The notes under the pieces are model-generated. The model worked only from the letters and a program-made list of their open reading frames with translations, was not told the origin of the DNA and did no database searches. Made by a program: the position numbers and the translations under genes. A stretch of DNA of 60,018 nt from a virus (Duplodnaviria; Caudoviricetes): positions 1-60,018 of the IMG/VR virus record IMGVR_UViG_3300022538_000807. One strand, given 5' to 3'. This document shows positions 16,902 to 58,201 of this stretch, in pieces. The number at the start of each line of letters is the position of its first letter. Position 1 is the stretch's first letter.

Positions 16902-17321
16902 TTAGCTTACAGACGGTACGATGTCGCAAGTTCCCTGTAGTGTACCACTAATAGTAACGGCATCCTCATAAGGTCCATCAAAAGTCATGTCTGTAAGAAT
17001 ACACTTGCCAGTAAATGTTTGTAAGCAACCAGGATCAGTTGTTGGCATTGAGAGAACTATGTCCAGAAGAGCAGTGTGACTGGTGTAGTGGTCTAAAAGT
17101 TCCTTCCTTCCGACATCAGTACAAATCCATAATCCGTCAAAGCTGATTGTCCATTCTCTACGTCCTACTAAAAATTCCCCATACCAGTTGGTATCTCTAT
17201 TTGTGATATCAATTGTTCCTTGCGTAAAATTGATTGAGAAACTTCTACTTTCTCCCAAAAGATTACCATCAACACTCAATGTCATACTGTGTCCCGAACG
17301 TCCAGCAGATAAACAAGCCAT
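16902..17321 (-). CDS. Major tail tube protein
   Basis: TIDITNRD...WYGEFLVGRREWTISFDGL...FTGKCILTD...DAVTISGTLQG is typical of siphophage tube proteins; synteny agrees. Confidence 0.9.
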   Translation of the reverse strand: MACLSAGRSGHSMTLSVDGNLLGESRSFSINFTQGTIDITNRDTNWYGEFLVGRREWTISFDGLWICTDVGRKELLDHYTSHTALLDIVLSMPTTDPGCLQTFTGKCILTDMTFDGPYEDAVTISGTLQGTCDIVPSVS

Positions 17322-20402: not shown

Positions 20403-20446
20403 ATATTCCCTTGTTGGTGAGTTGCTAGGAACATAATAAATTTTAA

Positions 20447-27242: not shown

Positions 27243-27422
27243 TTATTTAGCCTTATCTGCCATTTCCACCATTTTATTCTCTGGTGGTTTTTCAAATAGC
27301 TTTGCTACCCCTTGTTCTATCCACTTTTGGGCAATATGTTCATAGGTATCGAATGTTTTGCCCTTCTTGTGGCAACAGCCGAAGTTTTTAAGAAATACTA
27401 CTTTTACCATAGTGCGATTCAT
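27243..27422 (-). CDS. 59-aa head-region small protein
   Basis: Hand translation MNRTMVKVVFLKNFGCCHKKGKTFDTYEHIAQKWIEQGVAKLFEKPPENKMVEMADKAK; resembles small proteins upstream of HK97-type adaptors. Confidence 0.6.
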   Translation of the reverse strand: MNRTMVKVVFLKNFGCCHKKGKTFDTYEHIAQKWIEQGVAKLFEKPPENKMVEMADKAK

Positions 27423-28846: not shown

Positions 28847-29179
28847 TTAATTCACATATCCGTTATCTATTAGCCACTGTTTCAATTCAGTCAGCTTTGT
28901 TATCCTTACCTGTACCCATTGTACGGAATAGTCAGGATGAATATTTAAAATCTTGATAAGCTCATTTCTTCTATTTACATCGTCAATTATCTCTGCCTTT
29001 TCTGACTCTATGCTTACAATGGTGTTATAAAGTTGCTGTATTTGCATTTCGCCACTTTCAAGTGCCCCGATAATCACCCTGAAGTCTCGCCAAGCTTCTT
29101 TATTCGCTTCCTGTGCCAAAAGAAATATTGACATCGAAAGAATCAATGCAATCCCGATAAATATTAATGTCTTTTTCAT
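28847..29179 (-). CDS. Signal-peptide-bearing paralog of 7232-7492
   Basis: MKKTLIFIGIALILSMSIFLLA-QEA, then about 48/85 ungapped identities (hand count) to 7232-7492. Confidence 0.75.
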   Translation of the reverse strand: MKKTLIFIGIALILSMSIFLLAQEANKEAWRDFRVIIGALESGEMQIQQLYNTIVSIESEKAEIIDDVNRRNELIKILNIHPDYSVQWVQVRITKLTELKQWLIDNGYVN

Positions 29180-33041: not shown

Positions 33042-34325
33042 TTAGCTTGTAGCGGCATTAAGAACAACAAACGGTGACATAGAATGAGCACCGTACCTGG
33101 TTGTGAGCGTAGCTGCAGGCCAACACATGCCAGCAACTCTAAGCACGAACCTCCATGCTGTCTCATCGTAATCAAATCGTAGATGAGAACTTGCATCGAT
33201 GGTTATAGGTTGACGGTCTCCGATTAAGTAATACTTAAAATCGAAGAAACCGATATCTCCCTGTACACCAAGTCCCTGCATTTTTTCACTCACGATAACG
33301 GGTCTCCCGAAAATCTTCATTGGAAGAGGTTCGTTCGCTCCGCCATCTGCACTAATCCAGATCATGTTCTTACCAGAAGCATCAGCAGCATTGCCCGTTC
33401 CCAACTCAATAAGCTCAGCTAAAACTTCAGGGTTAATTACCCAGAAGGCCCTGCCTAATGAAGGAGTAAGCATTGCTTGATACATTTCTGCTAAATCTTC
33501 CAGCATCACCCTATTTGCCGTGTTACGAAAAACACTAAGCAAACATCCGCATTGAAGAATTCCCAAAGGCTGTCCACCACCCGTACCATTGATGAATGCG
33601 TCATCCTCGAAAAATCCCCAGGCAGTTCCAAACTGTCTCTTAATGAGTGGTTGCAATGCGATTGCACTGTCAGCCAAAAGTTCATTAGAGGCATAGGTCA
33701 TGCCGGCGAGTTTATGAGGAACGAGTTCCATCTGTCCAAATTCAGGTTTGGTAGGAGTTTTCTGTTTAGTTTCGGCAGTCCAATAGGCTATGATTCCACC
33801 ATATACAGAAGTCACATGAGAAGTGTCATTGATGTATGGAATTTTTAAAGAATCAGTAGTCATCTTGAGAATGGTTGCCCTAGGTCTTACGACTGCCCCT
33901 TCAAGAGCGATTTCGTAAAGGTCTTTCAGGAAAATCTCAGGAACTAAGAATCCACCCTGTGTGTCGTCTCCAATTTCCATGTGTCCGGCTGTTTTAGCTA
34001 GAGGATCAGTATATCTTCCGGCAGGGTCTACCCAAGTTAAGCGAGAATCAATAGCACTTCGGTTCATTCTGAACCTTCTGATTGAAGTCAGATATTCTCC
34101 GAATGTTTTGAATCCCTTGGCTTTTTCTGCTGCTAGTTTTTCTTCAGCGGTAGGTTCTGCAACCTTTACTTTCTCTTTTGCCTTATCAACGGAATCCTGT
34201 AAGAGTTCTTTCAACTGGTCTTGGACATAAGGATCAACTTGCTCTTTCACGAGATCCATTAGTTGCTCATCTATTGTCTTTTTAGTCTGCTCTGCGACTA
34301 AATCTTGTAGTTCACTTTCTTTCAT
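33042..34325 (-). CDS. HK97-fold major capsid protein
   Basis: Coiled-coil delta domain, GGFLVPE, SNELLADS, FINGTGGGQPLGIL, IFGRPVIVSE. Start reassigned to ATG 34325 (MKESELQ). Confidence 0.95.
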   Translation of the reverse strand: MKESELQDLVAEQTKKTIDEQLMDLVKEQVDPYVQDQLKELLQDSVDKAKEKVKVAEPTAEEKLAAEKAKGFKTFGEYLTSIRRFRMNRSAIDSRLTWVDPAGRYTDPLAKTAGHMEIGDDTQGGFLVPEIFLKDLYEIALEGAVVRPRATILKMTTDSLKIPYINDTSHVTSVYGGIIAYWTAETKQKTPTKPEFGQMELVPHKLAGMTYASNELLADSAIALQPLIKRQFGTAWGFFEDDAFINGTGGGQPLGILQCGCLLSVFRNTANRVMLEDLAEMYQAMLTPSLGRAFWVINPEVLAELIELGTGNAADASGKNMIWISADGGANEPLPMKIFGRPVIVSEKMQGLGVQGDIGFFDFKYYLIGDRQPITIDASSHLRFDYDETAWRFVLRVAGMCWPAATLTTRYGAHSMSPFVVLNAATS

Positions 34326-34329
34326 TGTC

Positions 34330-34618
34330 TTTCCATAGTATGCTGACTTTTGAATTTCAGCGATTAGACGAATACCCCCGTTGTTAACCAACAAAGTAGG
34401 TTATATAACCTACTCGTTTGGTAAGTGTGTATCCCCAGTGGCGACTTTTATTAACTAGCTACTTTAAAATTAGCCTCTGTTAATGAAGTCTTCCACCTGA
34501 TAATATCTTTTTAGGAAACAATCCCCTTTTGCTGAAGCCAGCAAGATTGATTAAACCTATATTTCATTGCAGTAAGTATCGCTTCTTGATACTTTAGCGA
34601 AATGAATATAGGTTTAAT
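34330..34618 (-). promoter_or_regulatory. Highly structured leader of the major capsid gene
   Basis: Perfect 20-bp palindrome 34395-34414; 14-bp stem 34550-34563/34605-34618; further stems at 34438-34496. Confidence 0.55.
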
Positions 34619-35533: not shown

Positions 35534-37069
35534 TTATCTTACTCTTCCTCTTATCCTATCTGTCTCATCCGCTATAGACTGCTTCAGAATTTCCTTTATC
35601 TTCTCGGGACTCAATGCTTCCTTTATTGCTTCTTGTACACCATTGCTAATGTTCACATTTTGTGGAACTCCAAAAGCATGAACATCTCTCTCTATTGCAA
35701 CTTCTCTTTCCCCTTCCTGACTCTGAGGCGGTTCGGTTGCATTGTAAAGCTGTTCTAGCTTTTCCCTGAGTTCAGTAAGTACATCTATTGTCTCTTTGAC
35801 TAGGGTGCGGTTTTTAGAGCTAAGAACACGTCCCTCTTTTAGCTCTGAAAGCTGTTCCTGAATATCCTCAAAGATAATGCCAATCGCTTCTTTAAGGTCA
35901 GCATGGTCATCAGGTTCGTGCTTGGCTTCATCAAAAATTTCATCAACTATCACTAATTCTGTAGGCAATGGAATTTCTTGCACCGCATCATCTATATCTA
36001 CAAGCACCTTTTCCTCTTCTAATTCCTCATCTGGAACTTCTTGGAGGATATTGTCTATGTTAACAATGGTTGTATCTTCCATTTCTTTTTCTCCTAATAG
36101 CTTTTCGTATCTATCTAAAAGGGATTTATGGTCACGTACCCAAGCCTGTGCTTCCGCCATGCTCCATTTTTCAATATCGAACAAATACGTATGCACCTTC
36201 TTTACCTTGCCGCAATAAATCGCTTTAATTCCCTGCTTTGCCGATATGGTAATCGTAGCCGTCACTTCGCATCCTGGATTAACAGGTATTCTGTGGTACT
36301 TCTCGGTTGTTTCGGGTTTGGTTATAGTTTCTTTCATCATCTCTGCAAGCTCTTCTAGTTTTTCTTTGCTTAATTTTTTGCCATTGCTTGTATGGATAAA
36401 TATTGGCAATTTATCTACTAGCTGTTTTTCCTTTGCCACTTCAACCTCCAATTCATCAACTATAATTTCAGGGTCATCTTTTTCTATCTCAATTTCAAGG
36501 TCTTCCTTGAGACCGCTACATGTAATAATGCCCTTCTGGTAAGCTTCCATAATTAACGCATTTTGATTTGCTGGGACTGGAACTGCCGATACCTCTAAAA
36601 GAGCAATTTTTTTATGAATTTTGTTTTCTTCGTCAAAATCCAAAGGAATGAATCCGATACTAAATCCTTTGAGAAATTTATCTTTATAGAGTTGGTAGAT
36701 TTCATCTGCTAATTGAGTTTTGGCGAACTCGAATTTCATAATTAATCCGTCTTTGCTTTTCTTTTGCCATTGCGATCGACCAATTGGAGGATCAGAATAC
36801 CGGTGTGCCCACATGAGAATTGGATTTTTCTCATATGAACTTAAGTCTATTCCCTCGGGAATAATCACCTCTCCTTCTCTGTCTTTGTCTCGAGTAGATA
36901 CCGTCGCTATAATAGTCCTGGCATCCTCATCTACTTCGCCCCTCTCTACAACATAGCTCTTTCTGACAAGCTCTATTTTATCCTTTTTCTTTTTTAGTTT
37001 TTGAGGCCAAGTGCCTAACTTATCTGGATAGACATCTATATACTTCAGCCTTTCGGTCATTTTGTTCAT
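35534..37069 (-). CDS. HK97-type prohead protease with long C-terminal extension
   Basis: DREGEVI, NPILMWAH, KGFSIGF, LLEVSAVPVPANQNAL; acidic extension ending LKEGRVLSSKNR. Confidence 0.92.
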   Translation of the reverse strand: MNKMTERLKYIDVYPDKLGTWPQKLKKKKDKIELVRKSYVVERGEVDEDARTIIATVSTRDKDREGEVIIPEGIDLSSYEKNPILMWAHRYSDPPIGRSQWQKKSKDGLIMKFEFAKTQLADEIYQLYKDKFLKGFSIGFIPLDFDEENKIHKKIALLEVSAVPVPANQNALIMEAYQKGIITCSGLKEDLEIEIEKDDPEIIVDELEVEVAKEKQLVDKLPIFIHTSNGKKLSKEKLEELAEMMKETITKPETTEKYHRIPVNPGCEVTATITISAKQGIKAIYCGKVKKVHTYLFDIEKWSMAEAQAWVRDHKSLLDRYEKLLGEKEMEDTTIVNIDNILQEVPDEELEEEKVLVDIDDAVQEIPLPTELVIVDEIFDEAKHEPDDHADLKEAIGIIFEDIQEQLSELKEGRVLSSKNRTLVKETIDVLTELREKLEQLYNATEPPQSQEGEREVAIERDVHAFGVPQNVNISNGVQEAIKEALSPEKIKEILKQSIADETDRIRGRVR

Positions 37070-37655: not shown

Positions 37656-38351
37656 CTATTCAATAAAATCCTTTACTGAATTCTCACTGTTTATTACCCT
37701 TCGACATAATAAAAAACAATCGCTTTTATAATTGTTTATATAATCGTTATCATTTTTAACTGCGTATTTATAACCAGCCTCTTTTACGGTATCTACAGTC
37801 CATTTGTTATAAACATTATAAGGATATGCAAAAGAAACAATAGGAAGCTTAATCTTTTCTTCAATCATCTCTTTCGATTCGGCTATTTCTCGCCACAATG
37901 CCCTTCTTGATAAACATGAGAAATTAAGATGGTACAGTCCATGACTGCCAATTTCATGTCCTGCGTTCAATACGTTATGTATCTCACTCCAATCCAACAA
38001 AGCCATTAGGTGCAATTCCCTTTTACGCCATCGAGCGGTATCTCCAACTAGCTTAGACACAATAAATACCGTAGCTGAAAAATTAAACCTATCTAAAACT
38101 GGCATAGCAGTATCAGAAAAATCCTTATATCCATCATCGAAGGTTAATATAATAGCCTTTTTTTGTTTAATATCCTTAAAAAATTCTTTGAGAGAAACTC
38201 CCTTATATCCACGTTCAGCCAGCCATTGCATTTCTAATCCGAAGGTTGAGGGGGAAACTGCCCAAGGATCTTCGCTATTATTTGAGATACTGTGGTATGC
38301 TAAAATTTCAGTCATATTATCCCTTGTTGTGTTTTCCTGTTTCCTCAACAT
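37656..38351 (-). CDS. Polysaccharide deacetylase (NodB/CE4)
   Basis: ILAYHSI, LTFDDGY, EIGSHGLYH, FAYPY; the true start is probably MTEIL. Confidence 0.9.
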   Translation of the reverse strand: MLRKQENTTRDNMTEILAYHSISNNSEDPWAVSPSTFGLEMQWLAERGYKGVSLKEFFKDIKQKKAIILTFDDGYKDFSDTAMPVLDRFNFSATVFIVSKLVGDTARWRKRELHLMALLDWSEIHNVLNAGHEIGSHGLYHLNFSCLSRRALWREIAESKEMIEEKIKLPIVSFAYPYNVYNKWTVDTVKEAGYKYAVKNDNDYINNYKSDCFLLCRRVINSENSVKDFIE

Positions 38352-39732
38352 AGGCTTTCATCCGTCTGACATTATCCTTCATCTGGCATATCGGAAGGAA
38401 TCTATTATGAATCATCGGCTCATATTCTCTTTCAACTTTCTTCCCGTTTTTCATAACCCAGCCATATTGATTATACTTCCTGAAATCTTTACTCAGAATC
38501 TCACAGTTGTATCTATCGGGATTGTTCCATATCGGACTTCCCGGAAGCGGGGTGAATGTGGAAAGCGTAATCATATCAAAATCAAGCCTACTAATATAAT
38601 CCCTATTTAACTCAGGAGTGTCTGCCCTTTCTCCTGGCGTTCCCATCATAAATAATACCTTAATTTTTAAACCTGCCTTCTTTGCATTTCTGCATCCTTC
38701 TAGCATCGCTTCCGCATCTATATGTTTATCCAAAAAATCGAGGACTCGCTGATCTCCGCTTTCAACTCCTGGCCAAATCTCCCTGCATCCAGCAGTTACC
38801 AGAGATTCACATATCTCAGAATCAAGCTGATCGGCTCGTACTAGACACCGCCAGATAATATCAAGCTTTTTAAATTGATCGCACAGATTTAGACATCTTC
38901 TTCTATTCAATGTCATATTATCATCCCATATCCCGAACTGCCTTATTCCAGTAGATTCGACAATCTCTTTTATCTCCGAAACGATATTAAATATTGACCT
39001 ATATCTTGTTTTTCGCTCCCACATAGATTGGGATGCACAAAAAGCACAATTAAATGAACATCCTCTGGAAGTTATAAGACTCTCGCTTCCACCGCTGACA
39101 TAGCTTTCTCTGTTTACGAAAATATCCTCGCCATAACTTCCCTCAATTAACGACCTGTCGGGAAAAGGAATAGCATCAAGATCCTCAATAAATCCATTGG
39201 GGCAATAAATTTTTTTAAGTTCTCCCTTCTCAACATCTCTAACCATATCCGATATAATAAGCTCACCCTCGCCTATGCCTATCGCATCAAATAAATCACC
39301 CTTAGAAATATCCTGATACATCGCCGTAGCATGAGTACCACCAAGAAATATCTTTATACCAGGAAGATGTTTCCTTATCCATATAGCACATTCCACATTC
39401 ATCGGATATTCTAGTGTTGTTCCACTCATACAGATAATATCCGCATCCTCGAAGTTGATAAAATCCTCTTTCCTTTGGGGGCGTACCAACCTTGCTTCGT
39501 AACCTTCTCTTTTAAGAATTGTAGCTAAATATAGCGGTCCTAATGCAATGTGCATATTTTGTCTAACAAGCCAGGGACTAGGAGTTTCAACAAAAACTAT
39601 CTTCAAGTCTGCCTGTCTTTTAATAAATCCGATATCACCCATATCATAACTGACAACCGTACCCTTCCATGCCTCATGAACCCTCCGGATATATATTCGA
39701 TAATTGGAGTTTCTGACCAGAGGATTTGCCAT
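38317..39732 (-). CDS. B12-binding radical SAM enzyme
   Basis: LGPLYLA...LGGTHAT...GEGE B12 domain; TSRGCSFNCAFC; DDNM; GVESG. True start probably near 39606-39640. Confidence 0.9.
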   Translation of the reverse strand: MANPLVRNSNYRIYIRRVHEAWKGTVVSYDMGDIGFIKRQADLKIVFVETPSPWLVRQNMHIALGPLYLATILKREGYEARLVRPQRKEDFINFEDADIICMSGTTLEYPMNVECAIWIRKHLPGIKIFLGGTHATAMYQDISKGDLFDAIGIGEGELIISDMVRDVEKGELKKIYCPNGFIEDLDAIPFPDRSLIEGSYGEDIFVNRESYVSGGSESLITSRGCSFNCAFCASQSMWERKTRYRSIFNIVSEIKEIVESTGIRQFGIWDDNMTLNRRRCLNLCDQFKKLDIIWRCLVRADQLDSEICESLVTAGCREIWPGVESGDQRVLDFLDKHIDAEAMLEGCRNAKKAGLKIKVLFMMGTPGERADTPELNRDYISRLDFDMITLSTFTPLPGSPIWNNPDRYNCEILSKDFRKYNQYGWVMKNGKKVEREYEPMIHNRFLPICQMKDNVRRMKAYVEETGKHNKG

Positions 39733-42858: not shown

Positions 42859-43000
42859 TTTCTTATAAATGGAAAATTCTCTATCGCCATAAAAATTAAA
42901 AACATTGCTAGGGCTGTAAATATTCCCGTTTCCTCAAAAACCAAATATATTAATGCTAAAGTGAATACAGTACGAATAACTTTGTTGGTTTTATTTTCCT

Positions 43001-43279
43001 TCATCCCAAGGTCTCCTTAACATTTTCATCGCTTGCTAGTTGGGAGGCGAGTTTGGCTAGTTTGGTTATAATAATATTTCCTTTTTTATCATAAGAAATA
43101 TCAATCCCATATTTCCATGCAAATTCATTAACTGCATCAAAAACAGAAAATTCTCCTCTCCTAAAGAATAATTTATATTTTTCAACAAATTTCATTGCAT
43201 CTTTTTTGTTGCAAGTTAATAACTTAATGATATCCTCTTTGGCTTCTTTAATAAACTCCTCCCATGTTTCTGTGTTCAC
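43001..43279 (-). CDS. Inserted hypothetical protein carrying echoes of the flanking genes
   Basis: Starts MNTE and contains LASQLA like 41920-42858; ends ETLG like the portal's ERLG. Confidence 0.55.
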   Translation of the reverse strand: MNTETWEEFIKEAKEDIIKLLTCNKKDAMKFVEKYKLFFRRGEFSVFDAVNEFAWKYGIDISYDKKGNIIITKLAKLASQLASDENVKETLG

Positions 43280-44712
43280 CCCAATCTCTCCCTTATCTTT
43301 TGCCTTGCCAATTCCACAACCTCCTCCGCCTGTTCTTCTGGAGACACAGCACCAAGCATACTAATCGGCACAAGCCTATTATCAACAAGTAGCTCATCGG
43401 CATCCTTCGGCTCTTTGCCTAAATCCGCCCTCACCTCATCTCTGGATAATATGCCGGCATTGACGTACTCAGTATTTTCCTTTAGCAATTGTTCCCTATC
43501 CTCCGGCACAACATCATCAAAAGCACAGAAGATGTTTGTATCGAAAAGCGATAAAAGCTCATTAAGCTTCTCTTCCTGTTTTCGCAATCTAGGCATTATT
43601 CCGGACTTAGCATGAGTGTAATCGGATGAATCCGCATTGGCACGGTTCACATCAGTTGAAACAAGCTTGCCTATAGGTATATCAAAGGCAACCGCAATCT
43701 CTTCACGAGTTATTTTCTTTCCTTCAATAAAGGATAATTCCTGCGGTGTCATCGTATCTTTAGAAAATTTCATCCCAGGTGGTAAGACGGCTGTTTTGCC
43801 CCCCTTAGCTGAACCTTCATATTTCTGCTGCCAGTCCTCTTTAAGGCGCTTCATCTCTTCTGTACCGATAAGCTCTGTTGATTCTAGCACCCCACCTACT
43901 CTTGCCTTATTCTTGAAGAGTGCCTCCTCAAATACATACATCTCTTTATTGACATATACGGCATCAGCGACACCTTGAACACAGGAGAAGCCTATATATT
44001 CGTTCTTAGGGTTAGGATAACGAAGGTGAACCACGTCATCTATTTCAAGCGTAAGCTCTATGCCACCCCTCTTGTACAAATAGCCTTTAACAAAGTCTCT
44101 TAAATCCTTGCCGGGAATAGGCTGTATATATGGCGATGGTATAACCCATAGCTCTCTAGGAACTTGAAGCCCGTCTCGTATAATATACCAGTAGGCATCA
44201 CCCGTAAGGTCGAGGAACAGCGATGTAAGCTCACGAAACTCACGACCGCTCATGAAAGGATTGGCGGTCTTTGTAAGGTCAAGAAAAGGATGTTCGTCAA
44301 CTTCCTCAACTTCCTGTGCTTTTTTGAGATAAGAATCAAGCCCTGTATTCGACTCAAGCCATTTCATCTGAGCTTTATCGATTGAGCGTGTAGGAAATAG
44401 CTGTATTTTCTTGCCACTCTCCGGTTTAGCCACATACAGCCTTAGCTTGGCAGCACCTATAGATTCAGCGTTGAGCGAAGCACATATATAAACCCATGAT
44501 GTAAACTCCCTCAGCATATCCTCTTTTGTGCGGACTTTACCGCTCTCCACGCCCTCACCCCAGAATACAGAGTCACCCCAAATGGTGGGGTCTAAGGCGG
44601 AGGGTCGTGCACCGCTTGTGTGGAATACATCGGCAAGCCCTTTGCGATAGCTCCCCGCTGTTCTTCCTATGTTATATGTTAATTTTTCTAATACGTTCAT
44701 TATTTTTCTCAT
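43276..44712 (-). CDS. Portal protein (HK97 family)
   Basis: WVYIC, ANPFMSG, LTGDAYW, DVVHLRYPNP, LFKNKA, REEIAVAFDIP, GILSRDEVR. Confidence 0.95.
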   Translation of the reverse strand: MRKIMNVLEKLTYNIGRTAGSYRKGLADVFHTSGARPSALDPTIWGDSVFWGEGVESGKVRTKEDMLREFTSWVYICASLNAESIGAAKLRLYVAKPESGKKIQLFPTRSIDKAQMKWLESNTGLDSYLKKAQEVEEVDEHPFLDLTKTANPFMSGREFRELTSLFLDLTGDAYWYIIRDGLQVPRELWVIPSPYIQPIPGKDLRDFVKGYLYKRGGIELTLEIDDVVHLRYPNPKNEYIGFSCVQGVADAVYVNKEMYVFEEALFKNKARVGGVLESTELIGTEEMKRLKEDWQQKYEGSAKGGKTAVLPPGMKFSKDTMTPQELSFIEGKKITREEIAVAFDIPIGKLVSTDVNRANADSSDYTHAKSGIMPRLRKQEEKLNELLSLFDTNIFCAFDDVVPEDREQLLKENTEYVNAGILSRDEVRADLGKEPKDADELLVDNRLVPISMLGAVSPEEQAEEVVELARQKIRERLG

Positions 44713-44847
44713 TTTCTAATTTTTTCTTTTGTATTTTCTTTATTTCTGGTTCAAGCAAAAATCCGACTAATGCCCAGAAGTTAAAATTGCCTTTATGGTT
44801 CTTTAATTGTTTCATTTAACTCATTTTAAAATTATTAATCAGAATGC

Positions 44848-45036
44848 TTAAATGCTTGTATTAAACTTAAACAAAAGCTCTATCCCCACAATTTCATAAT
44901 TTTCATCAAGATCAACATTAACCATATAGGGTGCGATTGATTTCGTTTTTTTGATTTTCTTATTTGATATTTTTGCATAGCTTGCATTGGCTTTTTTGTC
45001 ATATATAAATTTCACTTCTCCCCTCCGCTCCGCCAC
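44848..45036 (-). CDS. DUF2283-like protein
   Basis: YDKKANASYAKI...VNVDLDENYEIVGIELL. Confidence 0.75.
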   Translation of the reverse strand: MAERRGEVKFIYDKKANASYAKISNKKIKKTKSIAPYMVNVDLDENYEIVGIELLFKFNTSI

Positions 45037-45395
45037 CAGTAATCCTCAAAATACACAAGCATAGCAACGAATAGTGCAAATAAAAACCAAGAGTCGGGGG
45101 TCATTGCTTATCTTTTGCTTTACAAGGCGTAGAGCATTTACAACACACCCAAAATTTAAGTTTTACCAAAGAACCATTAATTTTATCTATATATACTCTA
45201 TTAATATTCGCATTACAACATTCACTTATAAATTTTTTCATATTCCCATCTTTATCTATTGCGGTTGGCAAAGCTTAATAACCTCTTTCATTAAATAAAT
45301 ACCTAATAATCCGCAATAAATAACAAAATTTTGATTTGGATGCGGTCTATATAGCCATTTGCAAAATGTACAACCCGCAGGGAAGCAATCTTTTT

Positions 45396-46598
45396 TCATA
45401 AACTAAGCTCTTTTTGCTTGGGTTCACGCTCCCAATGTTTTACTCTTTTCCGTGCGATAGTCAAATACTCATCCTCACGCTCAATTCCTATACATTTACG
45501 CCCTATGTTGTGTGCTGATATTGCAGTAGTACCAGAACCAAGGAAGGGGTCTAGGATGATTTGCCCTTCACGGGTTACAAGTTTTATTAGCCATTCAAAG
45601 AGAGCGGTTGGTTTTACTGTGGGGTGGTTGTTTTTGCTATCATCTAGTCCTCTATTCCGCTCGCTTTTTGATGCTTTTGCTGTGTAAAAAAATCTGGAAG
45701 CTCCTCCGTTTTGATTGGCGTATTTATTATCATCATAACCAGCTTTAAAAATTCCCGTATTATAATATCCCTTGGGGTCTTTATATTGCCCCTTGCCTTT
45801 TAGTTCCCCACTCTGCTCATCCAGCATCCTTGCGGCTTCTTCATCTAGGATGACGTTGGCAGGGAAGCGACCTTTGGGTTGTTTCCAAGGCTCTTTGCAC
45901 ATAGAATAATCACCATAAATTTCATTGTCGGCATGAACGGTATGAGGATTTTTATCAGCCTGTTCTTGTTTATCTGCAGGAGAAATATATCCAATCCTAC
46001 ACTCCTCCACATTAACCGCCCCAACCCCCCATTTCAGCACATTTTCAATATATGAACCTTCAGGAGGCTTGACCGCCCAGATTATCGGCTCATAGGCTGG
46101 CTTGATGCCACCGACTTTTAAGCCGTCCCACTCCTTACCATTGCCACCTCTCTTATCAATCATCTTCCCCAAATCCTGTGCCTTCGGGAATCCACTTCCA
46201 TATAGCCACATCAACGTATCCTTAATAATAAACCCGCTGTCCTCAATCGCACATGCCAAACGGTGGAATGTCCTTGTTCCACCCATGACTAGCATCGACC
46301 CCCCAGGCTTCAGCACTCGATAGGCTTCGGTGAGCCATTGGGTGTGAAAAACTTGATTAATACCATCCCATTCCTTTCCCATAAAGCCCTTTGATAAAGC
46401 TATGTGTGGTGAATTACCCTTACCAAAAGATTCTCTTACAAGAGGAGCAGAATTAGTTTTCCCAAATCTTTTAGTAATACTTACCAATCCATAAGGCGGG
46501 TCTGTTACAATCGCATCTACACTATTAGGCTTCATCGCCTTCATGACTTTGATGCAGTCACCTTTTAATATCATTTCTTTGTTTCCACTTCTCAACAC
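45396..46598 (-). CDS. DNA N4/N6 methyltransferase (beta class)
   Basis: GDC...VDAIVTDPPY, WLYGSGFPK, HPTVKP, ILDPFLGSGTT. Confidence 0.95.
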   Translation of the reverse strand: MLRSGNKEMILKGDCIKVMKAMKPNSVDAIVTDPPYGLVSITKRFGKTNSAPLVRESFGKGNSPHIALSKGFMGKEWDGINQVFHTQWLTEAYRVLKPGGSMLVMGGTRTFHRLACAIEDSGFIIKDTLMWLYGSGFPKAQDLGKMIDKRGGNGKEWDGLKVGGIKPAYEPIIWAVKPPEGSYIENVLKWGVGAVNVEECRIGYISPADKQEQADKNPHTVHADNEIYGDYSMCKEPWKQPKGRFPANVILDEEAARMLDEQSGELKGKGQYKDPKGYYNTGIFKAGYDDNKYANQNGGASRFFYTAKASKSERNRGLDDSKNNHPTVKPTALFEWLIKLVTREGQIILDPFLGSGTTAISAHNIGRKCIGIEREDEYLTIARKRVKHWEREPKQKELSL

Positions 46599-46955
46599 AA
46601 TCTTGACAATAATGTTCCCATTCGCTATATTGATTTAGTTTAAATCGCCATCCCTTTTCTTTTGAATATTCTACAAAATCATCCCAATTATTGCCATTTT
46701 CAAATTCTTCAAAATAAGAACAAGTATCACAAGAAAGTAAAAAGCCTAATTCATGGGGCAATTTTTCTATCATCTCTTTCACCTCACCCTAATTATACAG
46801 AAGAAGTGAATGAACGTCAAATTAAATACGTTTCTTATATAACTTACTAGCAAACCAATGTCCAATGTGTATTCCTATATACATTGATCCTAATGCTATT
46901 AATACTATCCAATACCACATCATATTGTTTCTCCTTTTCTATCTTGTATTAAGCA

Positions 46956-48140
46956 TCATATCCAAGTTATCCCTACCTCTGGTTTGTCTATCCGCATAAC
47001 CAGATATCTAAGTGCATCCATCGCATGATCGTCTTCCTTTACCGGCTTCTCCTTATCCTCATCATATCGGTAGAGTGAAAATTCGTCTATCAGGTGAATG
47101 CAGCTCTTAAATATCTTTAGCCTTACCGACTGTGGATCATCTGTAACCGGTCTTATTCTAGCGTTGACCTTCAGAATGCCCATGTCTACATCATTATTAG
47201 CAGGCACAACAACAAAGCCTAAGTGTTGAAGTTCTTTGTTTTGTTGTTTCTTTGATGGATCTGCTTCATATGTAATTTTGGAATCTAGGTGTTTAGCATG
47301 CTCTTCTAATAAACGCCCTCTTTCATAGTGTTCTTTATAAATATAAAGTACATCATCATCATCTAATGCTCCATCTAAAACAACAAATGGATTATTATAT
47401 CCTTGATCAATACCGCCCCCCCTTCTCCAGTCATTGGGAATATCAAAGTCATCAATAATATTATGATTACAAAAATCAGCATATATAAGCCCTTCGGCTT
47501 TACCAAATATCCCCTCATATCTGAGCCTGAACTGAGTCGGGGTCAGCATACGCTTCGCCCTTTCATACTCCTCTTTGGGAAAATACGGACTGTCCACAGA
47601 GCGAAACTGGATAAAATCTATATCGCCTTCCTCGCCCCTTAGCCGGCGTTCCTTATCCTTCTCAATCTCTTTATGCACCCAGTTCAAACTTATGGGGGTA
47701 AATGTACAGAGAATCCTTCCCTGTGTACGAGACACCCTACCCTGCATCATAACCCATATATCAGGCTTCATGAGCGATGCTTCATCAGCCCATATTGCCT
47801 GTGCCGTGATGCCTTCGATTGATTCCGGTTTGTCTGCGGAGCGGAGGAAGAAGTTTATTCCTGTTCTGGTTTTGTAGGTGGAGTCGGCTTTATTGAATAT
47901 CCCCCAGCCTTTTGGTACAAGCTCTTGAAATTTCTGTAAGGTACTTTGCTGAAGCATCTTATAGGTGGGAGCTACTATAATATAATCACCCCTCCCTTTT
48001 TGCATGGCTTCATTAACAATCCATATCGAGCCAAGAGTTGTCTTCCCCGATTGAACACCAGCTACTAAAAAAACAAATCGCTTCTTACTATTCCACGCTT
48101 TGATTTGCCATTTGTGAAGTTCAATCCGGCTTGTTTCCAT
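46956..48140 (-). CDS. terL: Terminase large subunit
   Basis: Walker A VAGVQSGKT, Walker B IWADEA, nuclease GIDQGYNNP and DDHAMDALRY. Confidence 0.95.
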   Translation of the reverse strand: METSRIELHKWQIKAWNSKKRFVFLVAGVQSGKTTLGSIWIVNEAMQKGRGDYIIVAPTYKMLQQSTLQKFQELVPKGWGIFNKADSTYKTRTGINFFLRSADKPESIEGITAQAIWADEASLMKPDIWVMMQGRVSRTQGRILCTFTPISLNWVHKEIEKDKERRLRGEEGDIDFIQFRSVDSPYFPKEEYERAKRMLTPTQFRLRYEGIFGKAEGLIYADFCNHNIIDDFDIPNDWRRGGGIDQGYNNPFVVLDGALDDDDVLYIYKEHYERGRLLEEHAKHLDSKITYEADPSKKQQNKELQHLGFVVVPANNDVDMGILKVNARIRPVTDDPQSVRLKIFKSCIHLIDEFSLYRYDEDKEKPVKEDDHAMDALRYLVMRIDKPEVGITWI

Positions 48141-48655
48141 GCTTTACTTCTAACTCATCAAATATTTCTGCTCCTCTTTCTTTTAGGACTTTCCCGAATC
48201 GCTTGAGCGTCTTTTCTATTTCAACCTGCTTCCCCAAAAACCATTTCTTTGATTTTCTCTTCATTTTCCTTCCGGCTTGTTTCCATCTGGTTTTTGTCAT
48301 ATGATATTTTTATTTATTGCTAACACCAATCAAGATGATTTTTGACAATTATCCACCCTGTTCCATTGCATTTATGACATTTTGCTTCTCTAGTGCAATT
48401 GTCTTTTTTATCAGATTGTTGACGCTTACCGGTCCCCTTGCATATCGAACATAAAATGCCCCTCATCTTTTCTTCTTTAAAAGCCCTTCTTTTCTAAAGT
48501 CGTTTTCAAATTTCTTATAAAGTGCATGATGCTCATTATCATCAATATAAATATCGTTTTTCCGTGGTTTCGTTTCGGCAGCACAAAGAGCAACGAGTAT
48601 TCCTTTAACCTTTCTTATTCTTATTGCCATTTATTTACCTCAATATAAAGAAAAT

Positions 48656-48704
48656 GGGGGGTTAGCAATTATTGACCATACGAGTTCGACTCTCGCACTC
48701 CCCC
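48656..48704 (+). ncRNA. Miniature tRNA-like element (acceptor stem and T arm, no anticodon arm)
   Basis: GGGGGGT-TAGC-AATTATTGACCAT-ACGAG-TTCGACT-CTCGC-ACTCCCC-C. Confidence 0.5.
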
Positions 48705-48719
48705 ATTTTCCTATTTATT

Positions 48720-49187
48720 CTATAACCGTGTAAAGCTACGATTTCCCCAAAGCTCGCCATTAATAGTAACAATATTTTCACGATCTTCAAGAAATTCATT
48801 AGTAGCCGAAACTACAAGGCTTGCTTCACCAACAAACGCTTGCGAGCTTACACCACGAACTGGTATTGTAAGAAGTATATCCACTAAATTAACACTGTGT
48901 TTTGCATAGAAATCCAAGAGTGCGTTTTGCCCAATGTCACCACAAATCCATAGTTCATCGAAACACATTTTCCAGTCTTCGCATTTTGTTAAAAATTTTG
49001 GCCATCGCTTAATGTCTTCTTTTATAAGGAAAATTGCTTCTTGCATAGAACTAATGAAAAAGCTTCTGCTTTCTCCTAAAGGATTCTCACCAAGAAATAA
49101 TGTCACAGAGGGTCTTGGAGGTCCCTTGCAAATGGAAACAAATTTAGTCAAAAATTGCCACATTGCTTTTTCGTTTATTTTATTCAC
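48720..49187 (-). CDS. Diverged paralog of the major tail tube protein
   Basis: LGESRSF, FDxLWICxDxG, LLDxYxxH and VTIxGxLxG are collinear with 16902-17321. Confidence 0.8.
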   Translation of the reverse strand: MNKINEKAMWQFLTKFVSICKGPPRPSVTLFLGENPLGESRSFFISSMQEAIFLIKEDIKRWPKFLTKCEDWKMCFDELWICGDIGQNALLDFYAKHSVNLVDILLTIPVRGVSSQAFVGEASLVVSATNEFLEDRENIVTINGELWGNRSFTRL

Positions 49188-49378
49188 TTCGCCTCCGGCT
49201 TGCCTTTATCAAACTTTCGACTATCATCCTTAGTTTGCATATCCCATCTATGGCCACAAATATTACATGTTACATCCAGCCATCCAATAAAATCAGAAGG
49301 ATCAAAAAGACGATAATTTAATTTTATATTATGAGAACCGCATTTACTACACTCTGGATTTATTTCAAAAGGTTTCAT
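49184..49378 (-). CDS. Small zinc-ribbon protein
   Basis: CSKCGS...CNICGHRW. Confidence 0.6.
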   Translation of the reverse strand: MKPFEINPECSKCGSHNIKLNYRLFDPSDFIGWLDVTCNICGHRWDMQTKDDSRKFDKGKPEAK

Positions 49379-49695
49379 TTCACCTCCGGCTTTCCCCCAT
49401 CGTGATTTATAATAACCGTAAGGGGCTTAAATTCCCCCTCCTCATCCTGACCACCTGTTACAGAGGAGGGAAGCATCTTGGTTATCCAACCGTAGAACAA
49501 TGCTTTGTTATGTGGATTTTTGTTTGCCCACTCTTCTAAACCACCTGTTCCACCCAAGCGTTCAAATACTTCAAGGAAGGCATTTTTGAGGTTGGTGAAT
49601 CGAGATTTAGCACCTTTAGGCTTACCTGGATTCCCACGCAGAAATTTCCCTTCTTTATCCCGAATTTCTCCGTTTCTTTCGGTTTCGTTATTCAT
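49375..49695 (-). CDS. terS: Terminase small subunit
   Basis: RDKEGKFLRGNPGKPKGAK...AFLEVFERLGG...ITKMLP; upstream of terL. Confidence 0.75.
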   Translation of the reverse strand: MNNETERNGEIRDKEGKFLRGNPGKPKGAKSRFTNLKNAFLEVFERLGGTGGLEEWANKNPHNKALFYGWITKMLPSSVTGGQDEEGEFKPLTVIINHDGGKPEVK

Positions 49696-50064
49696 CTCGC
49701 CACCACCACCTTTACCTCTTCCTCTATTTCTTGCATTTTACTTAGCTGTGACACAGCCTCCTTGTTGCTTTCATCCAATGGTCTAAAGGTAAGAATAAGC
49801 TTTGCCTCTAGTTCACCACATGCCAAACGATAGCTTGTTATGTTCTTAATCATCGCTTGGAAACAGATTGGCTCTATCAGTTCTTCACCCAAAATTTCCA
49901 CCATTTACGTTTGTAATAAGAACAGTCAAAGCCTAGGTTGTAATTTAATCTTGGATTTTCCCACTTTGGAGTATTATCATTAATACAAAATTCATCTATT
50001 CCCATAAATTTGCTTGGATAAAGGTCAATATAAAATTTGCAATCTTCACAATAAATCATTTTCA

Positions 50065-50301
50065 TCAGCACCGCCCACTCTTGCCTGTATAAATTCCGAA
50101 CCCTCCTGAAAAATTCTCTTCACTAGGCTCTGGTGGTTTAGGTAGCGTCTTTGCCTTCTGCTTCTTTCCAAGCACTACCCCAATTTGCTTCCATGCGGTT
50201 GGAAATGAGGCAAGGTATATTACTATCGCAACTATAAATGAAAGAATTGCACCCAGCATAAGGTAGAGAATAAAAAGAATGGGTTGGAATATGTATCTCA
50301 T
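50065..50301 (-). CDS. Small membrane protein
   Basis: Long N-terminal hydrophobic segment; in the lysis region. Confidence 0.5.
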   Translation of the reverse strand: MRYIFQPILFILYLMLGAILSFIVAIVIYLASFPTAWKQIGVVLGKKQKAKTLPKPPEPSEENFSGGFGIYTGKSGRC

Positions 50302-50520
50302 ATTTTACTCATTTCCCGATTTTTATCGAAAGTGATTAAATCCCGGTATTTCTTTAAAGCGATTCTAGGCATTGAGCTATTGTCCTTATAAATTTTCACG
50401 TGCTTCTCAATGCGCTTAACATGGCTTTTCTCATGCTTTTTCAATGCCCGGTATTTAGCGCCCTTATCTTTATCTCTTCCATGTTTCCTTGCACCACCGG
50501 ATTTCTTTTTGGCTGGCATA

Positions 50521-50724
50521 TTATGTTAGTCCGTTTAACTTGCCCTCTATTCTTTCAAGTCTTCGTTCTGTATCCTCCATTTGTTCTTCTAGCCTTGCTA
50601 TGCGCTCCCCATATCCAGGATTGTTACTTTTACCAAAAAGCTTCTTTGCTCTCTCAAAAGCGACAAATGCCACTGCGATTCCGATTATTATCCATTGAAA
50701 TATTTGTTGCTGATCCATCGTCAA
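50521..50724 (-). CDS. Holin-like single-TM protein with coiled coil
   Basis: TM WIIIGIAVAFVAF, then RIARLEEQMEDTERRLERIEGKL. Confidence 0.45.
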   Translation of the reverse strand: MTMDQQQIFQWIIIGIAVAFVAFERAKKLFGKSNNPGYGERIARLEEQMEDTERRLERIEGKLNGLT

Positions 50725-50984
50725 CTCCCCTTTTGCTTCCGTAGTTTTTTTATCTCTTCCTTAAGTTCGAGTGTCCACATTAAAAATGCTTCGTTTACGA
50801 TAAAATTACCGTCTTCTGTTACAGCAAGAGGATTGAGCCGAACTTCTGGACCTGGATTTAGCACATCGTAACTTGGATAAAGCGATGGAGAGTAGCCTAC
50901 GCAATTAATCAAAAAGCAGCTTACGAATGTCGTCAAGACTACGACTCTGGCAAGCCTTGCGTAATTTCTTCCTCTTTTTCGCAT
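50721..50984 (-). CDS. Putative lipoprotein (o-spanin-like)
   Basis: Basic N-terminus, hydrophobic core ending LINC, Pro-rich body; overlaps the 3' end of the upstream ORF in another frame. Confidence 0.45.
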   Translation of the reverse strand: MRKRGRNYARLARVVVLTTFVSCFLINCVGYSPSLYPSYDVLNPGPEVRLNPLAVTEDGNFIVNEAFLMWTLELKEEIKKLRKQKGS

Positions 50985-51079
50985 CTTTCTCTTTCCTTAT
51001 CTGGATTTCAATCATACTCTCAAGTTGTAGTATCTTTTCTAATATTTTAAAAACGGTTTCTATGGTTTCTTTGCTCATT

Positions 51080-51862
51080 TTATTTTTCCGGATGAATAAT
51101 CTCGTAAATCTGCTTGCGATTATCACATCTTCCGTTTGTGCTACCCACAAAGGTAACCTTGATAAACTCTGTTGAGGCAGCCGGTTTTGCCCTTTCTTCT
51201 GCATAGCTATTATCCCATTCAAGAGCAGACCCTGTAATATAATCATAGCCAACATGTTTAAGAACCTGCTTACGCCCAACATCATACCAAGTAACTGGTA
51301 TCCTTGAAGTGATGTGGAAATGCCCGCTGAAAATAGCATCTGCAGTCGGAGTTATTCTGCGTAGTGCTTCAGCTCTATTCACCTTGCCGCCATATGTATA
51401 GCCCCCACCGTAGTTATGATGAAAATAGCAATTGAACGAATTTGGATTTTTAGAACTTGCTACCTGAAACACAGCATAACATGAAAAGCCTACGTATGAC
51501 ATCCCTAGTCGATAAGCTATGTGTTCTTCCGGTATAAGCCCCACCAATCGCATTGTGCGCTGTTCATGGTTACCAGCAATAAGAAACAATCCCTTTTCTT
51601 TTATGGGTTCTAGCAAATCACAGATATATTCTATCTGTTCTTTCGGGGGTACTGTTTGAGTATAGATATCTGATTTAGAACCAATTATGGCATTCTCAAG
51701 CATGTCTCCCATGCCCACCCAGTAGGCGTTGGGATTATCTTTAATTTCTGCTATCGTTTGTTTCATAAAATCTTCATTACACTGAGCAGAACCAAAGTGA
51801 AAATCCCCAATCGGATAAAGAGTAAATAGCTTCTTAGGAAATTTCTTATAATAAAATTTCAT
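51080..51862 (-). CDS. Calcineurin-like metallophosphoesterase
   Basis: GDFHFG, GMGD, AGNHE, HH and SGHFH motifs. Confidence 0.85.
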   Translation of the reverse strand: MKFYYKKFPKKLFTLYPIGDFHFGSAQCNEDFMKQTIAEIKDNPNAYWVGMGDMLENAIIGSKSDIYTQTVPPKEQIEYICDLLEPIKEKGLFLIAGNHEQRTMRLVGLIPEEHIAYRLGMSYVGFSCYAVFQVASSKNPNSFNCYFHHNYGGGYTYGGKVNRAEALRRITPTADAIFSGHFHITSRIPVTWYDVGRKQVLKHVGYDYITGSALEWDNSYAEERAKPAASTEFIKVTFVGSTNGRCDNRKQIYEIIHPEK

Positions 51863-52165
51863 AAAATTCTTTTATTTTTTTCCTTCTTCCAATTCCCTCG
51901 CCTTTCTACATCCTTCCACCCAATTATCTGCCGTAAATAATAGTATCTTCTTGTGGGGGATTCCTTGCATTTCACACATAAATTCTGTTGTTTTAATACA
52001 ATTATTAAAATTCTCTAAAAAAAAGGCGTATTCTACATCTCGTATTATTTGCAGATGAATTTCTTTCTCTTCTTCGTCTGTCATTTCTTTCCTTTCATGC
52101 CGTGACCGCCACCTGTCACATCAATCTTTCAGGCATAATAATTCCCCACCCTGCTCACGTGTTTT

Positions 52166-52525
52166 TTAATATTGAAAATGGAAGTGATCCTTAAATTTAG
52201 TTTTACCCTGTTCATACCACCGAAGTCCCCACGTGCCACCCATCGACTCCCAGAATTGACCCAAAACCAGATACTCCGGACAGTCCCAAATAGGGTTACC
52301 CTTATCATCGATAATTACAATATCCCTTGCCCTATCAAGTTGATGCTTTGATATTTTCTTATAACCATCGCAGTTGCTTTTCCCATCCTTGAAGAACTTA
52401 TTCTGTTCTGGTGCTGTTCTTGTATATGCAGTGCAGATAAATTTAATATCTTTGATAGAGGCATAAACAGAAAGCATTCCAAACTTATAATTAAATTGGC
52501 AGCGGAGGAGTGTGTTGTTAGGCAT
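52166..52525 (-). CDS. Endolysin, M15-family (L-Ala-D-Glu type) peptidase
   Basis: RTAPEQ...SKHQLDRARD...GGTWG...DHFHFQ zinc-ligand pattern. Confidence 0.85.
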   Translation of the reverse strand: MPNNTLLRCQFNYKFGMLSVYASIKDIKFICTAYTRTAPEQNKFFKDGKSNCDGYKKISKHQLDRARDIVIIDDKGNPIWDCPEYLVLGQFWESMGGTWGLRWYEQGKTKFKDHFHFQY

Positions 52526-52732
52526 TTATATCTTATGAAATCCTTTTTTGTCTATATCATCCTTCTTGATTGATGGCAACCAAGAGGGATCTGGTATCCC
52601 CAATTTTACCGCATAGCAGTAAGGACAGTATCTTCTTGTTGAATCTTTAACCTCCACATTTGATATATACGCATCACCACAATAGTCACAGGCATATTCA
52701 AATTGCTCTTTTTCTTCCTCTTCTCTTTCCAT
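52526..52732 (-). CDS. Small zinc-finger protein, first late-arm gene
   Basis: CDYCG...YCPYC. Confidence 0.55.
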   Translation of the reverse strand: MEREEEEKEQFEYACDYCGDAYISNVEVKDSTRRYCPYCYAVKLGIPDPSWLPSIKKDDIDKKGFHKI

Positions 52733-52769
52733 CTATTCATTCAATCTTATAGAACCCCTATATATCCTT

Positions 52770-52798
52770 ATTATACGTACCAAGCATACTTGTGTCAA
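52770..52798 (-). promoter_or_regulatory. Perfect-consensus sigma70 promoter heading the lysis/morphogenesis arm
   Basis: Minus strand TTGACA (52798-52793), 17 bp spacer, TATAAT (52775-52770). Confidence 0.85.
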
Positions 52799-52867
52799 GG
52801 AAAAAAATTTTACCTCAAGAGGATTTTTCTCTTTAAATAAGAAAAAGGGAGAGTGTCGGTTAAAAGT

Positions 52868-53644
52868 TTATTTCCCGTTAGTTCTTAAATCCCAATAGAA
52901 ATTTGCTTTTTCTTGTCTTCTGTAGTTGTAGATTCCCTCAATTAATCTCAGATAAGAATTAACTGAAATCGCATCAAATAACTTGTCTCTTTGATATCTA
53001 AGTTTCGAAATAAAATCAGCATGGCTATAATCTTTATGATCAAAAAGCCTTATCATCGCAGCAACAAAATGTTTTCTTCCGTAACCAGGGTATAAATCTT
53101 TAATCATCAAAACTTTCTCTGCTCTGTCTTCCGCTCTTAATGGATTTTTAAAAGCAAATTCCCCCCTCTTGAATACATCTTGGCTTGTTCCTCCTTCAGA
53201 ACCCAGTATGATGAGTAGGGTCGTCGTCTGCGGAAATCCATATTTCTCATAGAACTCTTTGTATTTAATATAATCTGGATAATCTAACTCTACATAACAA
53301 TTCATAAAATTAGTCATAGTCCAATTTTTTCTACTTGAATTAATAGCGTGAATTTCTTTAAGACCATATCCTTTTTTAATGATATAATCAACAGGCAATC
53401 CTAATTCTTCAAAAATTTCGACTCGAGTTTGACCATCAATAAGCTCACCCTTCTCATTAACTAAACAAGGCGGACCTAGGTCACCATACTTTGAAATAGA
53501 CTCTTTCAAATGCCTTTTATGGGCTGGTTTGACGGGCCTATTTCCCTTCAGTTTTTTGAACTTAGCATAGTTTAAGGTTTCAAAAACCTTTATTATGCTT
53601 TCTAAATCGTTCATGATTCTAACCTCCTGATTGGTTTTTGACAC
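52868..53644 (-). CDS. ParB/Srx N-terminal-like domain protein
   Basis: GNRPV...LKESI...PCLVNEKGELIDGQTR...LGLPVDYII. Confidence 0.75.
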   Translation of the reverse strand: MSKTNQEVRIMNDLESIIKVFETLNYAKFKKLKGNRPVKPAHKRHLKESISKYGDLGPPCLVNEKGELIDGQTRVEIFEELGLPVDYIIKKGYGLKEIHAINSSRKNWTMTNFMNCYVELDYPDYIKYKEFYEKYGFPQTTTLLIILGSEGGTSQDVFKRGEFAFKNPLRAEDRAEKVLMIKDLYPGYGRKHFVAAMIRLFDHKDYSHADFISKLRYQRDKLFDAISVNSYLRLIEGIYNYRRQEKANFYWDLRTNGK

Positions 53645-58054: not shown

Positions 58055-58201
58055 TTATTCTCCTTTTTTTATTTTAATCCAACCAGTTCCCCCACATGAG
58101 TAACAACGAACCTTTTGAGGATGGATTAAATGGTGTTGATTTGGAAGAGAGACTCTTCCCTCCCCATTACATGCTGAACATTTCTTCTGTTCTTCTTTCA
58201 C
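58055..58201 (-). CDS. 48-aa DnaJ-type zinc-finger protein
   Basis: Hand translation contains CSACNGEG...CYSCGGTG. Confidence 0.6.
   Translation of the reverse strand: MKEEQKKCSACNGEGRVSLPNQHHLIHPQKVRCYSCGGTGWIKIKKGE

Follow-up and report, generated by a model that had tools for sequence, protein, structure and literature searches.

A fast-diverging copy of the tail tube gene between the terminase genes of an uncultured siphovirus-type phage

The 60,018-bp window analysed here is the whole of IMG/VR virus record IMGVR_UViG_3300022538_000807, a complete genome (direct terminal repeats, completeness estimate 100) of a siphovirus-type phage. Between its small and large terminase genes, terS and terL, lies an intact open reading frame (ORF) of 155 amino acids (aa) with a GTG start (48720..49187, minus strand), which its alignments show to be truly homologous to the phage's own tail tube protein, a member of the TP901-1 family, and which is called the paralogue below. 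We read it, with a probability of about 0.4, as a selectively kept, non-polymerising accessory late protein derived from the tube, that is, a tube mimic. Since its frame stayed intact under fast change, the paralogue probably has a new job, and the combination of a kept tube fold, the loss of residues that all polymerising tubes of the family keep, a new helix and an altered composition led us to read that job as mimicry of the tube without polymerisation. A copy of the tube gene from the phage's own narrow lineage would have landed exactly at the terS/terL junction, within a cassette of small genes, and would have stayed intact and expressed there despite the fast divergence of its product. 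The mimic would then occupy the surface that recognises a free tube subunit, on the growing tube end, on assembly partners or on a host sensor. We infer expression with the late genes, loss of polymerisation and the mimic mechanism.

The tube paralogue and its parent gene

The regular tail tube (major tail) protein of the phage (139 aa, 16902..17321, minus strand) matched PF06199 Phage_tail_2, the TP901-1 family, at E 5.8e-11 (43 bits, cut-off 23.8) and phrog_1407, 'major tail protein', at E 1.8e-21. Its gene is flanked by a tail terminator (17521-17943, phrog_176) and a chaperone-type tail gene (16528-16881, phrog_2115). The tube identity of the gene named as partner of the copy in the first-pass annotation is thereby supported. 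BLASTP of the paralogue against this protein gave 49/132 identities (37%) and 68/132 positives with 5 gap positions (76.6 bits, E 1e-23), and all three sequence blocks on which the first-pass annotation had founded its diverged, collinear tube copy were recovered in the alignment. The intact frame, the replacement of TIDITNRD by AIFLIKED and the new N-terminus, an extension of 15-16 residues, were likewise seen. When the tube protein was compared with the phage's own record, it matched exactly two places, the tube gene and positions 48741-49124 (E 1.7e-20, 40% identity, no stops). The paralogue lies 31.4 kb from the tube gene, outside the tail module, and its location between terS and terL was as first described, terS being assigned by position.

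A GGAGG stands 4 nt before the GTG codon, which shares the sequence GTGA with the stop of the preceding gene. One gene further upstream, the start of a 64-aa gene and the stop of the terS-position gene form an ATGA junction of like layout; from these two overlaps the terS-position gene, the 64-aa gene and the paralogue look translationally coupled. The GTG start is therefore credible. It was also chosen in an independent call of a 155-aa gene (P0008, 155/155 identical), and another database gene call starts at an internal ATG, giving 147 aa.

As had been proposed, the paralogue is an orphan. It matched no Pfam family (E <= 0.1), no PHROG and no NCBIfam model, so that its homology to PF06199 proteins is pairwise, with phmmer matches to two tubes only. 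A word-indexed search of 5.8 billion proteins returned the paralogue itself only, and an HMMER search of 1.84 billion representatives returned the paralogue and two ordinary tubes at E about 1e-5. No orthologue was found by tblastn in 50,697 phage records. A pattern scan of IMG/VR gave 7 stretches, none confirmed as an orthologue, and a search of GTDB genomes gave 78, none confirmed. Among the JGI metagenome contigs, 226 stretches were found, of which the single confirmed one is a tube with 80% identity to the regular tube, on a 2,551-bp contig, and not an orthologue of the paralogue. In contrast to a core structural gene, the paralogue thus has no orthologue in related phages among the records searched. 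Identical copies were found under P0001 (two contigs) and P0008 (a 16,613-bp contig); as these apparently come from the source sample, the paralogue is known from one population only. Three other phage records have a tube of the family, and in none of the three was a second copy present. Proteins P0019 and P0037, each on a 40,261-bp contig, were considered as a second case of duplication and rejected, as they lie close together in the tree and are ordinary tubes.

The only sequencing runs found to contain the phage genome are marine-sediment metagenomes; of the four listed, none was given as an RNA data set. These four were inspected over positions 43000-53000. X1, the probable source, was alone in covering the paralogue, with 0 differences; X2-X4 gave short pieces of relatives over terL, terS and their neighbours and none over 48678-49345, an uncovered stretch which in itself proves nothing.

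Age, fold and rate of change of the copy

Close relatives of the regular tube are few (99%, 80%, 77% and 49% identity), and a profile search added about 60 further, more distant PF06199 tubes. A maximum-likelihood tree was made with 63 proteins, leaving out P0001, P0002, P0008 and P0009, which duplicate window proteins, as well as P0061 (an 85-aa fragment) and P0067 (a 256-aa weak match). The paralogue clustered with the phage's own tube and with the 80% and 77% tubes (P0003 and P0004), and the clade of these four proteins was split from the 59 other tubes by a branch of 0.69 with a support of 100/100. Its terminal branch, at 2.83 substitutions per site, is longer than those of the three tubes in the clade (0.031, 0.11 and 0), and its protein sequence was found to change 25-90 times faster than that of the working tube. 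Because of this long branch, the exact position of the paralogue within the clade is unreliable. On sequence grounds, the paralogue comes from the phage's own narrow tube lineage; the copy may have arisen by duplication within the genome or have been captured from a close relative.

The age of the copy was estimated by a three-taxon codon analysis (135 columns) of the paralogue, the own tube and L080, the nucleotide sequence of the 80% tube. Pairwise synonymous distances (dS) were 1.19 between the paralogue and the own tube, 1.04-1.07 between the paralogue and L080, and 0.91-1.12 between the two tubes. These values being alike, the copy is about as old as the split of the two tube orthologues. 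At identical residues, the paralogue shares its codon with L080 at 57% of sites, where saturation would give 37% (P 0.0005), and with the own tube at 49%, where 39% would be expected (P 0.08). Synonymous similarity between paralogue and tube is not fully erased. By the same measure, the two capsid paralogues of the phage are saturated (33% against 37% expected). Seven pairs of paralogues were found within the genome, and dS could be computed for four of them: the tube pair had the lowest value (1.29), and the other three ranged from 2.5 to 4.8. The NG86 method gave no value for the remaining three, which points to saturation. In protein identity, on the other hand, the tube pair (36%) is the second lowest of the seven, next to a 44-codon zinc-finger pair (30%).

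An AlphaFold2 model of the paralogue, made with a 63-sequence alignment of tube proteins, had a mean predicted local distance difference test score (pLDDT) of 76.4 and a predicted TM-score (pTM) of 0.64; the model of the own tube had a pLDDT of 80.8. In the paralogue model, the tube fold spans residues about 21-155, with a long loop at 54-64 and a single helix at 83-96, and strands and helix follow each other as in the own-tube model, where the long loop is at 39-49 and the helix at 70-81. The model keeps the beta-sandwich, flanking helix and long loop of the tube fold. Residues 6-19 form a new, amphipathic helix; the N-terminal arm of the tube is unstructured (pLDDT <50, residues 2-9). When the fold was checked with Foldseek, the only 4 matches at E <= 0.001 were monocin tail entries (9j1k, 9j1j, 8qhs), followed, with TMq of about 0.4-0.54, by lambda gpV and further tube-fold proteins from contractile systems. 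A VIA comparison gave 12/988 chains at Z >= 8 (maximum 8.7, residues 21-155); those listed were all tube- or Hcp-type, and included the SPR tube chains of the DSR2 complexes (8yln_C, Z 8.2; 8zc9_C, Z 8.0). The family profile matched 8qhs at E 5.1e-21 and the RcGTA tube 6tba at E 7.7e-5. No usable feature match for the paralogue was obtained in the Protein Atlas, where structure matches stayed below the bar.

Changes in the paralogue were then placed on the fold. The TIDIT segment, in the own-tube model, is the end of the strand that enters the long loop, and NRD is the loop start. Among 62 tubes, 11 columns are invariant or nearly so; the paralogue keeps 7 of them (D43, W57, I66, D69, T91, G105 and G130 in own-tube numbering) and has lost 4 (D38F, T40I, S125N and the invariant terminal S139, which is absent). 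Of the lost residues, two belong to the long-loop base and the other two to the C-terminal strand and tail. The composition is more basic and more aromatic than that of tubes: the isoelectric point, 5.48, is above the family range (4.05-5.00, n = 61), with 17 lysines and arginines against 6-8, and 19 serines and threonines against 26-35. A complex prediction of the own tube with the paralogue, each with its alignment, scored 0.00 with a mark of 0.32, and was counted neither way on binding.

Selection was estimated with the same three sequences. On the paralogue branch, dN was 0.50, dS 0.57-0.66 and their ratio omega 0.77-0.88, as compared to 0.07-0.21 on the two tube branches. The frame is nevertheless open beyond neutral expectation: when the tube gene was evolved neutrally over the same distance (d = 0.57-0.66, base composition of the genome, 20,000 runs each), it stayed open in 0.35-0.21% of the runs, and a mean of 5.6-6.0 stops was produced. 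All 4 internal indels in the pairwise alignment of paralogue and tube are multiples of three. The three close tubes agree at 98 positions, and 41 of these residues are retained in the paralogue; retention over four bins of rising conservation among the 59 outgroup tubes was 7/25, 9/24, 14/28 and 11/21 (Mann-Whitney P 0.007 for the trend; Fisher test at a 0.5 split, P 0.10).

Readings of the paralogue

Several points weigh against a selectively kept tube mimic. The omega of the paralogue is close to neutrality, and 10/21 positions that are >=80% conserved in the family are replaced; the swaps at conserved positions include radical ones (G to R, D to F, G to K, P to D). Residues with AT-rich codons (FYMINK) were gained 16 times and lost 6 times (P 0.05), which is the direction of AT-biased mutation under relaxed constraint; GARP residues showed no net change (10 lost, 9 gained). 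A dS near 1 is imprecise, so that the age and the omega of the copy are both rough. The fold model leans to the tube fold because its alignment was made of tubes, and a single-sequence Atlas model was poor (pLDDT 0.41). The gene is known from one sample, the probable source, to which the identical copies and the only covering run all trace. Finally, the open-frame argument carries an ascertainment bias, since the first-pass annotation could only spot an intact ORF.

Most of these points are those of a decaying duplicate, under relaxed constraint and not yet hit, or with a frame that could be kept open only against polarity on terL or against toxic truncated tube fragments, the protein itself being functionless. 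The missing family-model match, the absence of an orthologue in the databases searched and the absence of the cassette from 7/7 TerL relatives go in the same direction. Pure neutral drift fits poorly with the rarity of an open frame (0.2-0.35% of neutral runs, with 5.6-6.0 stops expected), with the in-frame indels, with retention biased towards conserved positions, and with an intact Shine-Dalgarno (SD) sequence and start/stop coupling. Phage genomes, moreover, shed useless DNA quickly. The drifting duplicate that the first-pass annotation had offered as an option is therefore borne out for the speed of change and the 10/21 replacements, and not for neutrality; we consider decay less likely than the tube mimic, but a live rival to it.

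A minor virion component, with the copy specialised to one tail ring (adaptor, initiator or cap) beside the terminator or distal tail protein, is a second live rival, somewhat less likely again. The kept fold would suit it, and so would the changes at the long-loop base and C-terminus and the new N-terminal helix: the accessible text on RcGTA describes the long loop as mediating disc-to-disc contacts, and tail proteins made of an N-terminal helix and a beta-barrel core (PMC7296036). The phage has other duplicated structural genes, e.g. two major-capsid-like genes with 43% identity, and some actinophage clusters carry two major tail protein genes, as far as the consulted part of that study goes (PMC11080557). 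This reading has to account for a gene placed 31 kb from the tail module, in a zinc-ribbon mini-gene cassette without counterpart in relatives. It has also to account for an omega of about 0.8, when the tube has 0.07-0.2 and the other structural duplicates have 0.05-0.17 (pairwise, where computable). Terminator and tail-completion genes are already present, and the three other phage records that carry a family tube have no second copy. The weight left beyond the tube mimic, decay and the minor ring goes to functions that we have not thought of.

The tube mimic takes up the 'dominant-negative or capping tube mimic' of the first-pass annotation, with which the modelled fold, the changes at the loop base and C-terminus and the predicted new helix are consistent. 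A more specific form of it is improbable: a soluble, non-polymerising look-alike, expressed from the front of the late operon, might soak up a DSR2-like host sensor that responds to free tube monomers, or might poison or cap the tails of co-infecting relatives. It would then be a weapon of anti-defence or competition derived from a structural gene and seen early in its divergence. The available part of one report has DSR2 binding the monomeric tube protein and not the oligomer (PMC10981675), and abstracts on the system present free tube monomers as the immune trigger and DSAD1 as a phage counter-protein. DSR2/DSAD1 serves here as a precedent only, and no similarity of the paralogue to DSAD1 is claimed.

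It is accepted that tail ring proteins arose as tube-fold genes multiplied, and T4 gp19, gp48 and gp54 are a further example. For RcGTA, a common origin from one gene has been inferred for stopper, terminator, tube and distal tail proteins, in the portion of the paper at hand (PMC7296036). The likeness lies in a copied tube-fold gene that diverges to a non-tube role; the RcGTA paralogues are ancient (<19% identity), stand in the tail module and are proven virion parts, whereas the copy described here is 37% identical, unsaturated and among packaging genes. Compared to the TP901-1-family tubes (PF06199), of which the nearest solved ones are monocin MttP (8qhs, 9j1j, 9j1k) and RcGTA Rcc01691 (6tba), the paralogue is alike in its homology (E 1e-23), its order of strands and helix and its best structural matches, and differs by the missing family-model match, the 4/11 lost residues, the extra helix, the isoelectric point and its location. 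Two tube-type genes in one siphophage genome are also met with in actinophages, such as gp17 and gp19 of Microbacterium phage Damascus, according to the accessible text (PMC11080557). Both genes are then in the tail module and common to several clusters, unlike the remote, strongly diverged copy in one genome. A major structural gene that was duplicated, diverged and translocated is found in Caulobacter phage Colossus, where gene 36, a capsid gene and not a tube gene, is given as a major capsid paralogue, 'significantly diverged' and moved about 21 kb, in the part of the article consulted, which gives no analysis of its rate or selection (PMC3556154). In the parts of the literature searched, we found no description of a tube-derived decoy or of a remote diverged tube paralogue. 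What is new here is the combination of a young age, an extreme rate, the lost family signature and the move into the terminase junction.

To our knowledge, the known tube-fold duplications are so old that their first steps are no longer visible. With a copy that is 37% identical, keeps some synonymous memory, has left the tail module and is still intact, the earliest stage in the life of a duplicated self-assembling protein becomes testable: the order in which contacts are lost, and the effect of the copy on the parent polymer, be it interference, capping or none. If the paralogue were a decoy for tube-sensing immunity, it would represent a new route to anti-defence genes. These considerations are limited to a single uncultured genome.

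The terminase junction and the rest of the genome

The window genes and the hairpin described below are on the minus strand. terL (46956-48140) encodes 394 aa and matched Terminase_6N at E 6.1e-11 and phrog_2 at E 1.5e-45. The putative terS (49375..49695, 106 aa) was assigned by its position and because its homologue in relatives directly adjoins terL; the protein matched no named family in Pfam, PHROG or NCBIfam. Between the two lies a cassette of 1.2 kb, made of a zinc-ribbon gene, the paralogue, a hairpin and three mini-genes. Its first gene (49184..49378) encodes a 64-aa CxxC zinc-ribbon mini-protein with sub-threshold family matches only; an assignment as a Lar restriction-alleviation protein was rejected as too weak (E 0.018; 15.3 bits, cut-off 39.6). 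Just 3' of the paralogue stop is a hairpin with a long stem and a U-rich tail (48660..48715; -29.6 kcal/mol, z -1.9; stem about 13 bp, large loop). It was not called by a simple terminator scan and has no Rfam match, and is possibly a terminator or attenuator. A tRNA-like 3' fragment within it, as a candidate attP, was discarded: ARAGORN found no tRNA, and there was no Rfam match at E <= 1 in 48000-49500. The mini-genes are p55 (48463-48630), p48 (48320-48466; 48 aa, a CxxCxGxG zinc finger) and p59 (48121-48300), the end of which runs into the start of terL. A paralogue of p48, also of 48 aa and with 34% identity, lies near the other genome end (58055-58201), and both proteins had DnaJ-central-domain and anti-TRAP-like matches below curated cut-offs. 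An SD-bearing motif coding for the ...GKPE.K tail end occurs at 48114-48148, 48260-48294, 49183-49217 and 49374-49408, that is, at three cassette gene junctions and once within p59, with 66-71% identity to the reference copy over 35 nt. The motif may be a trace of the way in which the cassette was put together.

No close cultured phage was found among the 50,697 phage records, where the best TerL matches were all <60% identical. Relatives were taken among 67 TerL-related loci, of which 7 IMG/VR loci (L003-L009) have a TerL with 69% identity. In 7/7 of these, the terS-position gene ends within the first bases of terL and no cassette gene is present. A homologue of the 106-aa protein was found in 6/7 (five at 42% over 99 aa, one partial). 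The paralogue, the tube, the four cassette mini-proteins and two small upstream proteins, eight other window proteins in all, had no match in the 67 loci, so that the 1.2-kb cassette is lineage-specific. A tube-profile search of five TerL-relative records returned nothing, not even a regular tube, and is hence uninformative on the paralogue. The presence of the gene in related genomes, which the first-pass annotation had proposed to check, was thus answered in part: the cassette is missing from all 7 loci, these being relatives by TerL and not by tube identity. The terS-position gene of L004 has a helix-turn-helix-type N-terminal part and the same C-terminal tail; this gene (L004:1-315) and that of L005 (L005:5709-6014) differ in their N-terminal parts and share the tail (...EFHPLKVIISNNEDK) and the same terL, which from the sequences looks like domain swapping in the small terminase. 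Upstream of terS, the window resembles L005, including a Peptidase_M15-like gene (E 2.8e-4, below the Pfam cut-off). On the other side of terL, a 400-aa DNA methyltransferase (45396-46598, phrog_67 E 5.9e-69) separates terL from the portal gene (43276-44712). In L005, terL is directly followed by a 475-aa ORF in the portal position, so that the methyltransferase gene would be a second lineage-specific insertion beside the packaging genes.

The window holds 80 ORFs >=100 aa, of which the long, non-nested ones are all on the minus strand, and no tRNA gene (ARAGORN). Further structural genes are a protease/capsid-like gene (35534-37069), a head-tail adaptor (25981-27141), a tail completion gene (24632-25060) and, by position and size, a 1,094-aa gene in tape-measure position (12837-16121). 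Between the portal/head-morphogenesis genes and the protease/capsid genes lies a gene for a 471-aa B12-binding radical SAM protein (38317-39732; PF04055 E 5.9e-17, PF02310 E 1.5e-10). The two adjacent capsid-like genes (33042-34394, 450 aa, and 31968-33029, 353 aa) both matched phrog_10, 'major head protein', and are 43% identical over 373 aa; being saturated at synonymous sites, they represent an old duplication. By analogy with the paired capsid genes of T4, gp23 and gp24, they may be a hexamer/penton pair.

Other duplications were noted. A two-gene module occurs twice (29880-31025 with 28847-29179, and 7505-8824 with 7232-7492), with identities of 42% over 210 aa and 56% over 85 aa; the proteins of 29880-31025, 7505-8824 and 28847-29179, which were the three scanned, had no family match. 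Two tandem paralogues (21112-21822 and 20447-21115) are 50% identical over 227 aa, with no Pfam match. Within the structural module, a block of about 7 kb (17943-24635) separates the tail-completion gene from the tail terminator, and at least 4 of its 8 ORFs encode glycosyltransferases (a two-domain GT2, a GT1-like, a GT2 and a rhamnosyltransferase-like protein); a further glycosyltransferase gene is at 27419-28594. These genes suggest virion glycosylation. Serine and threonine make up 31/139 residues of the regular tube and 19/155 of the paralogue.

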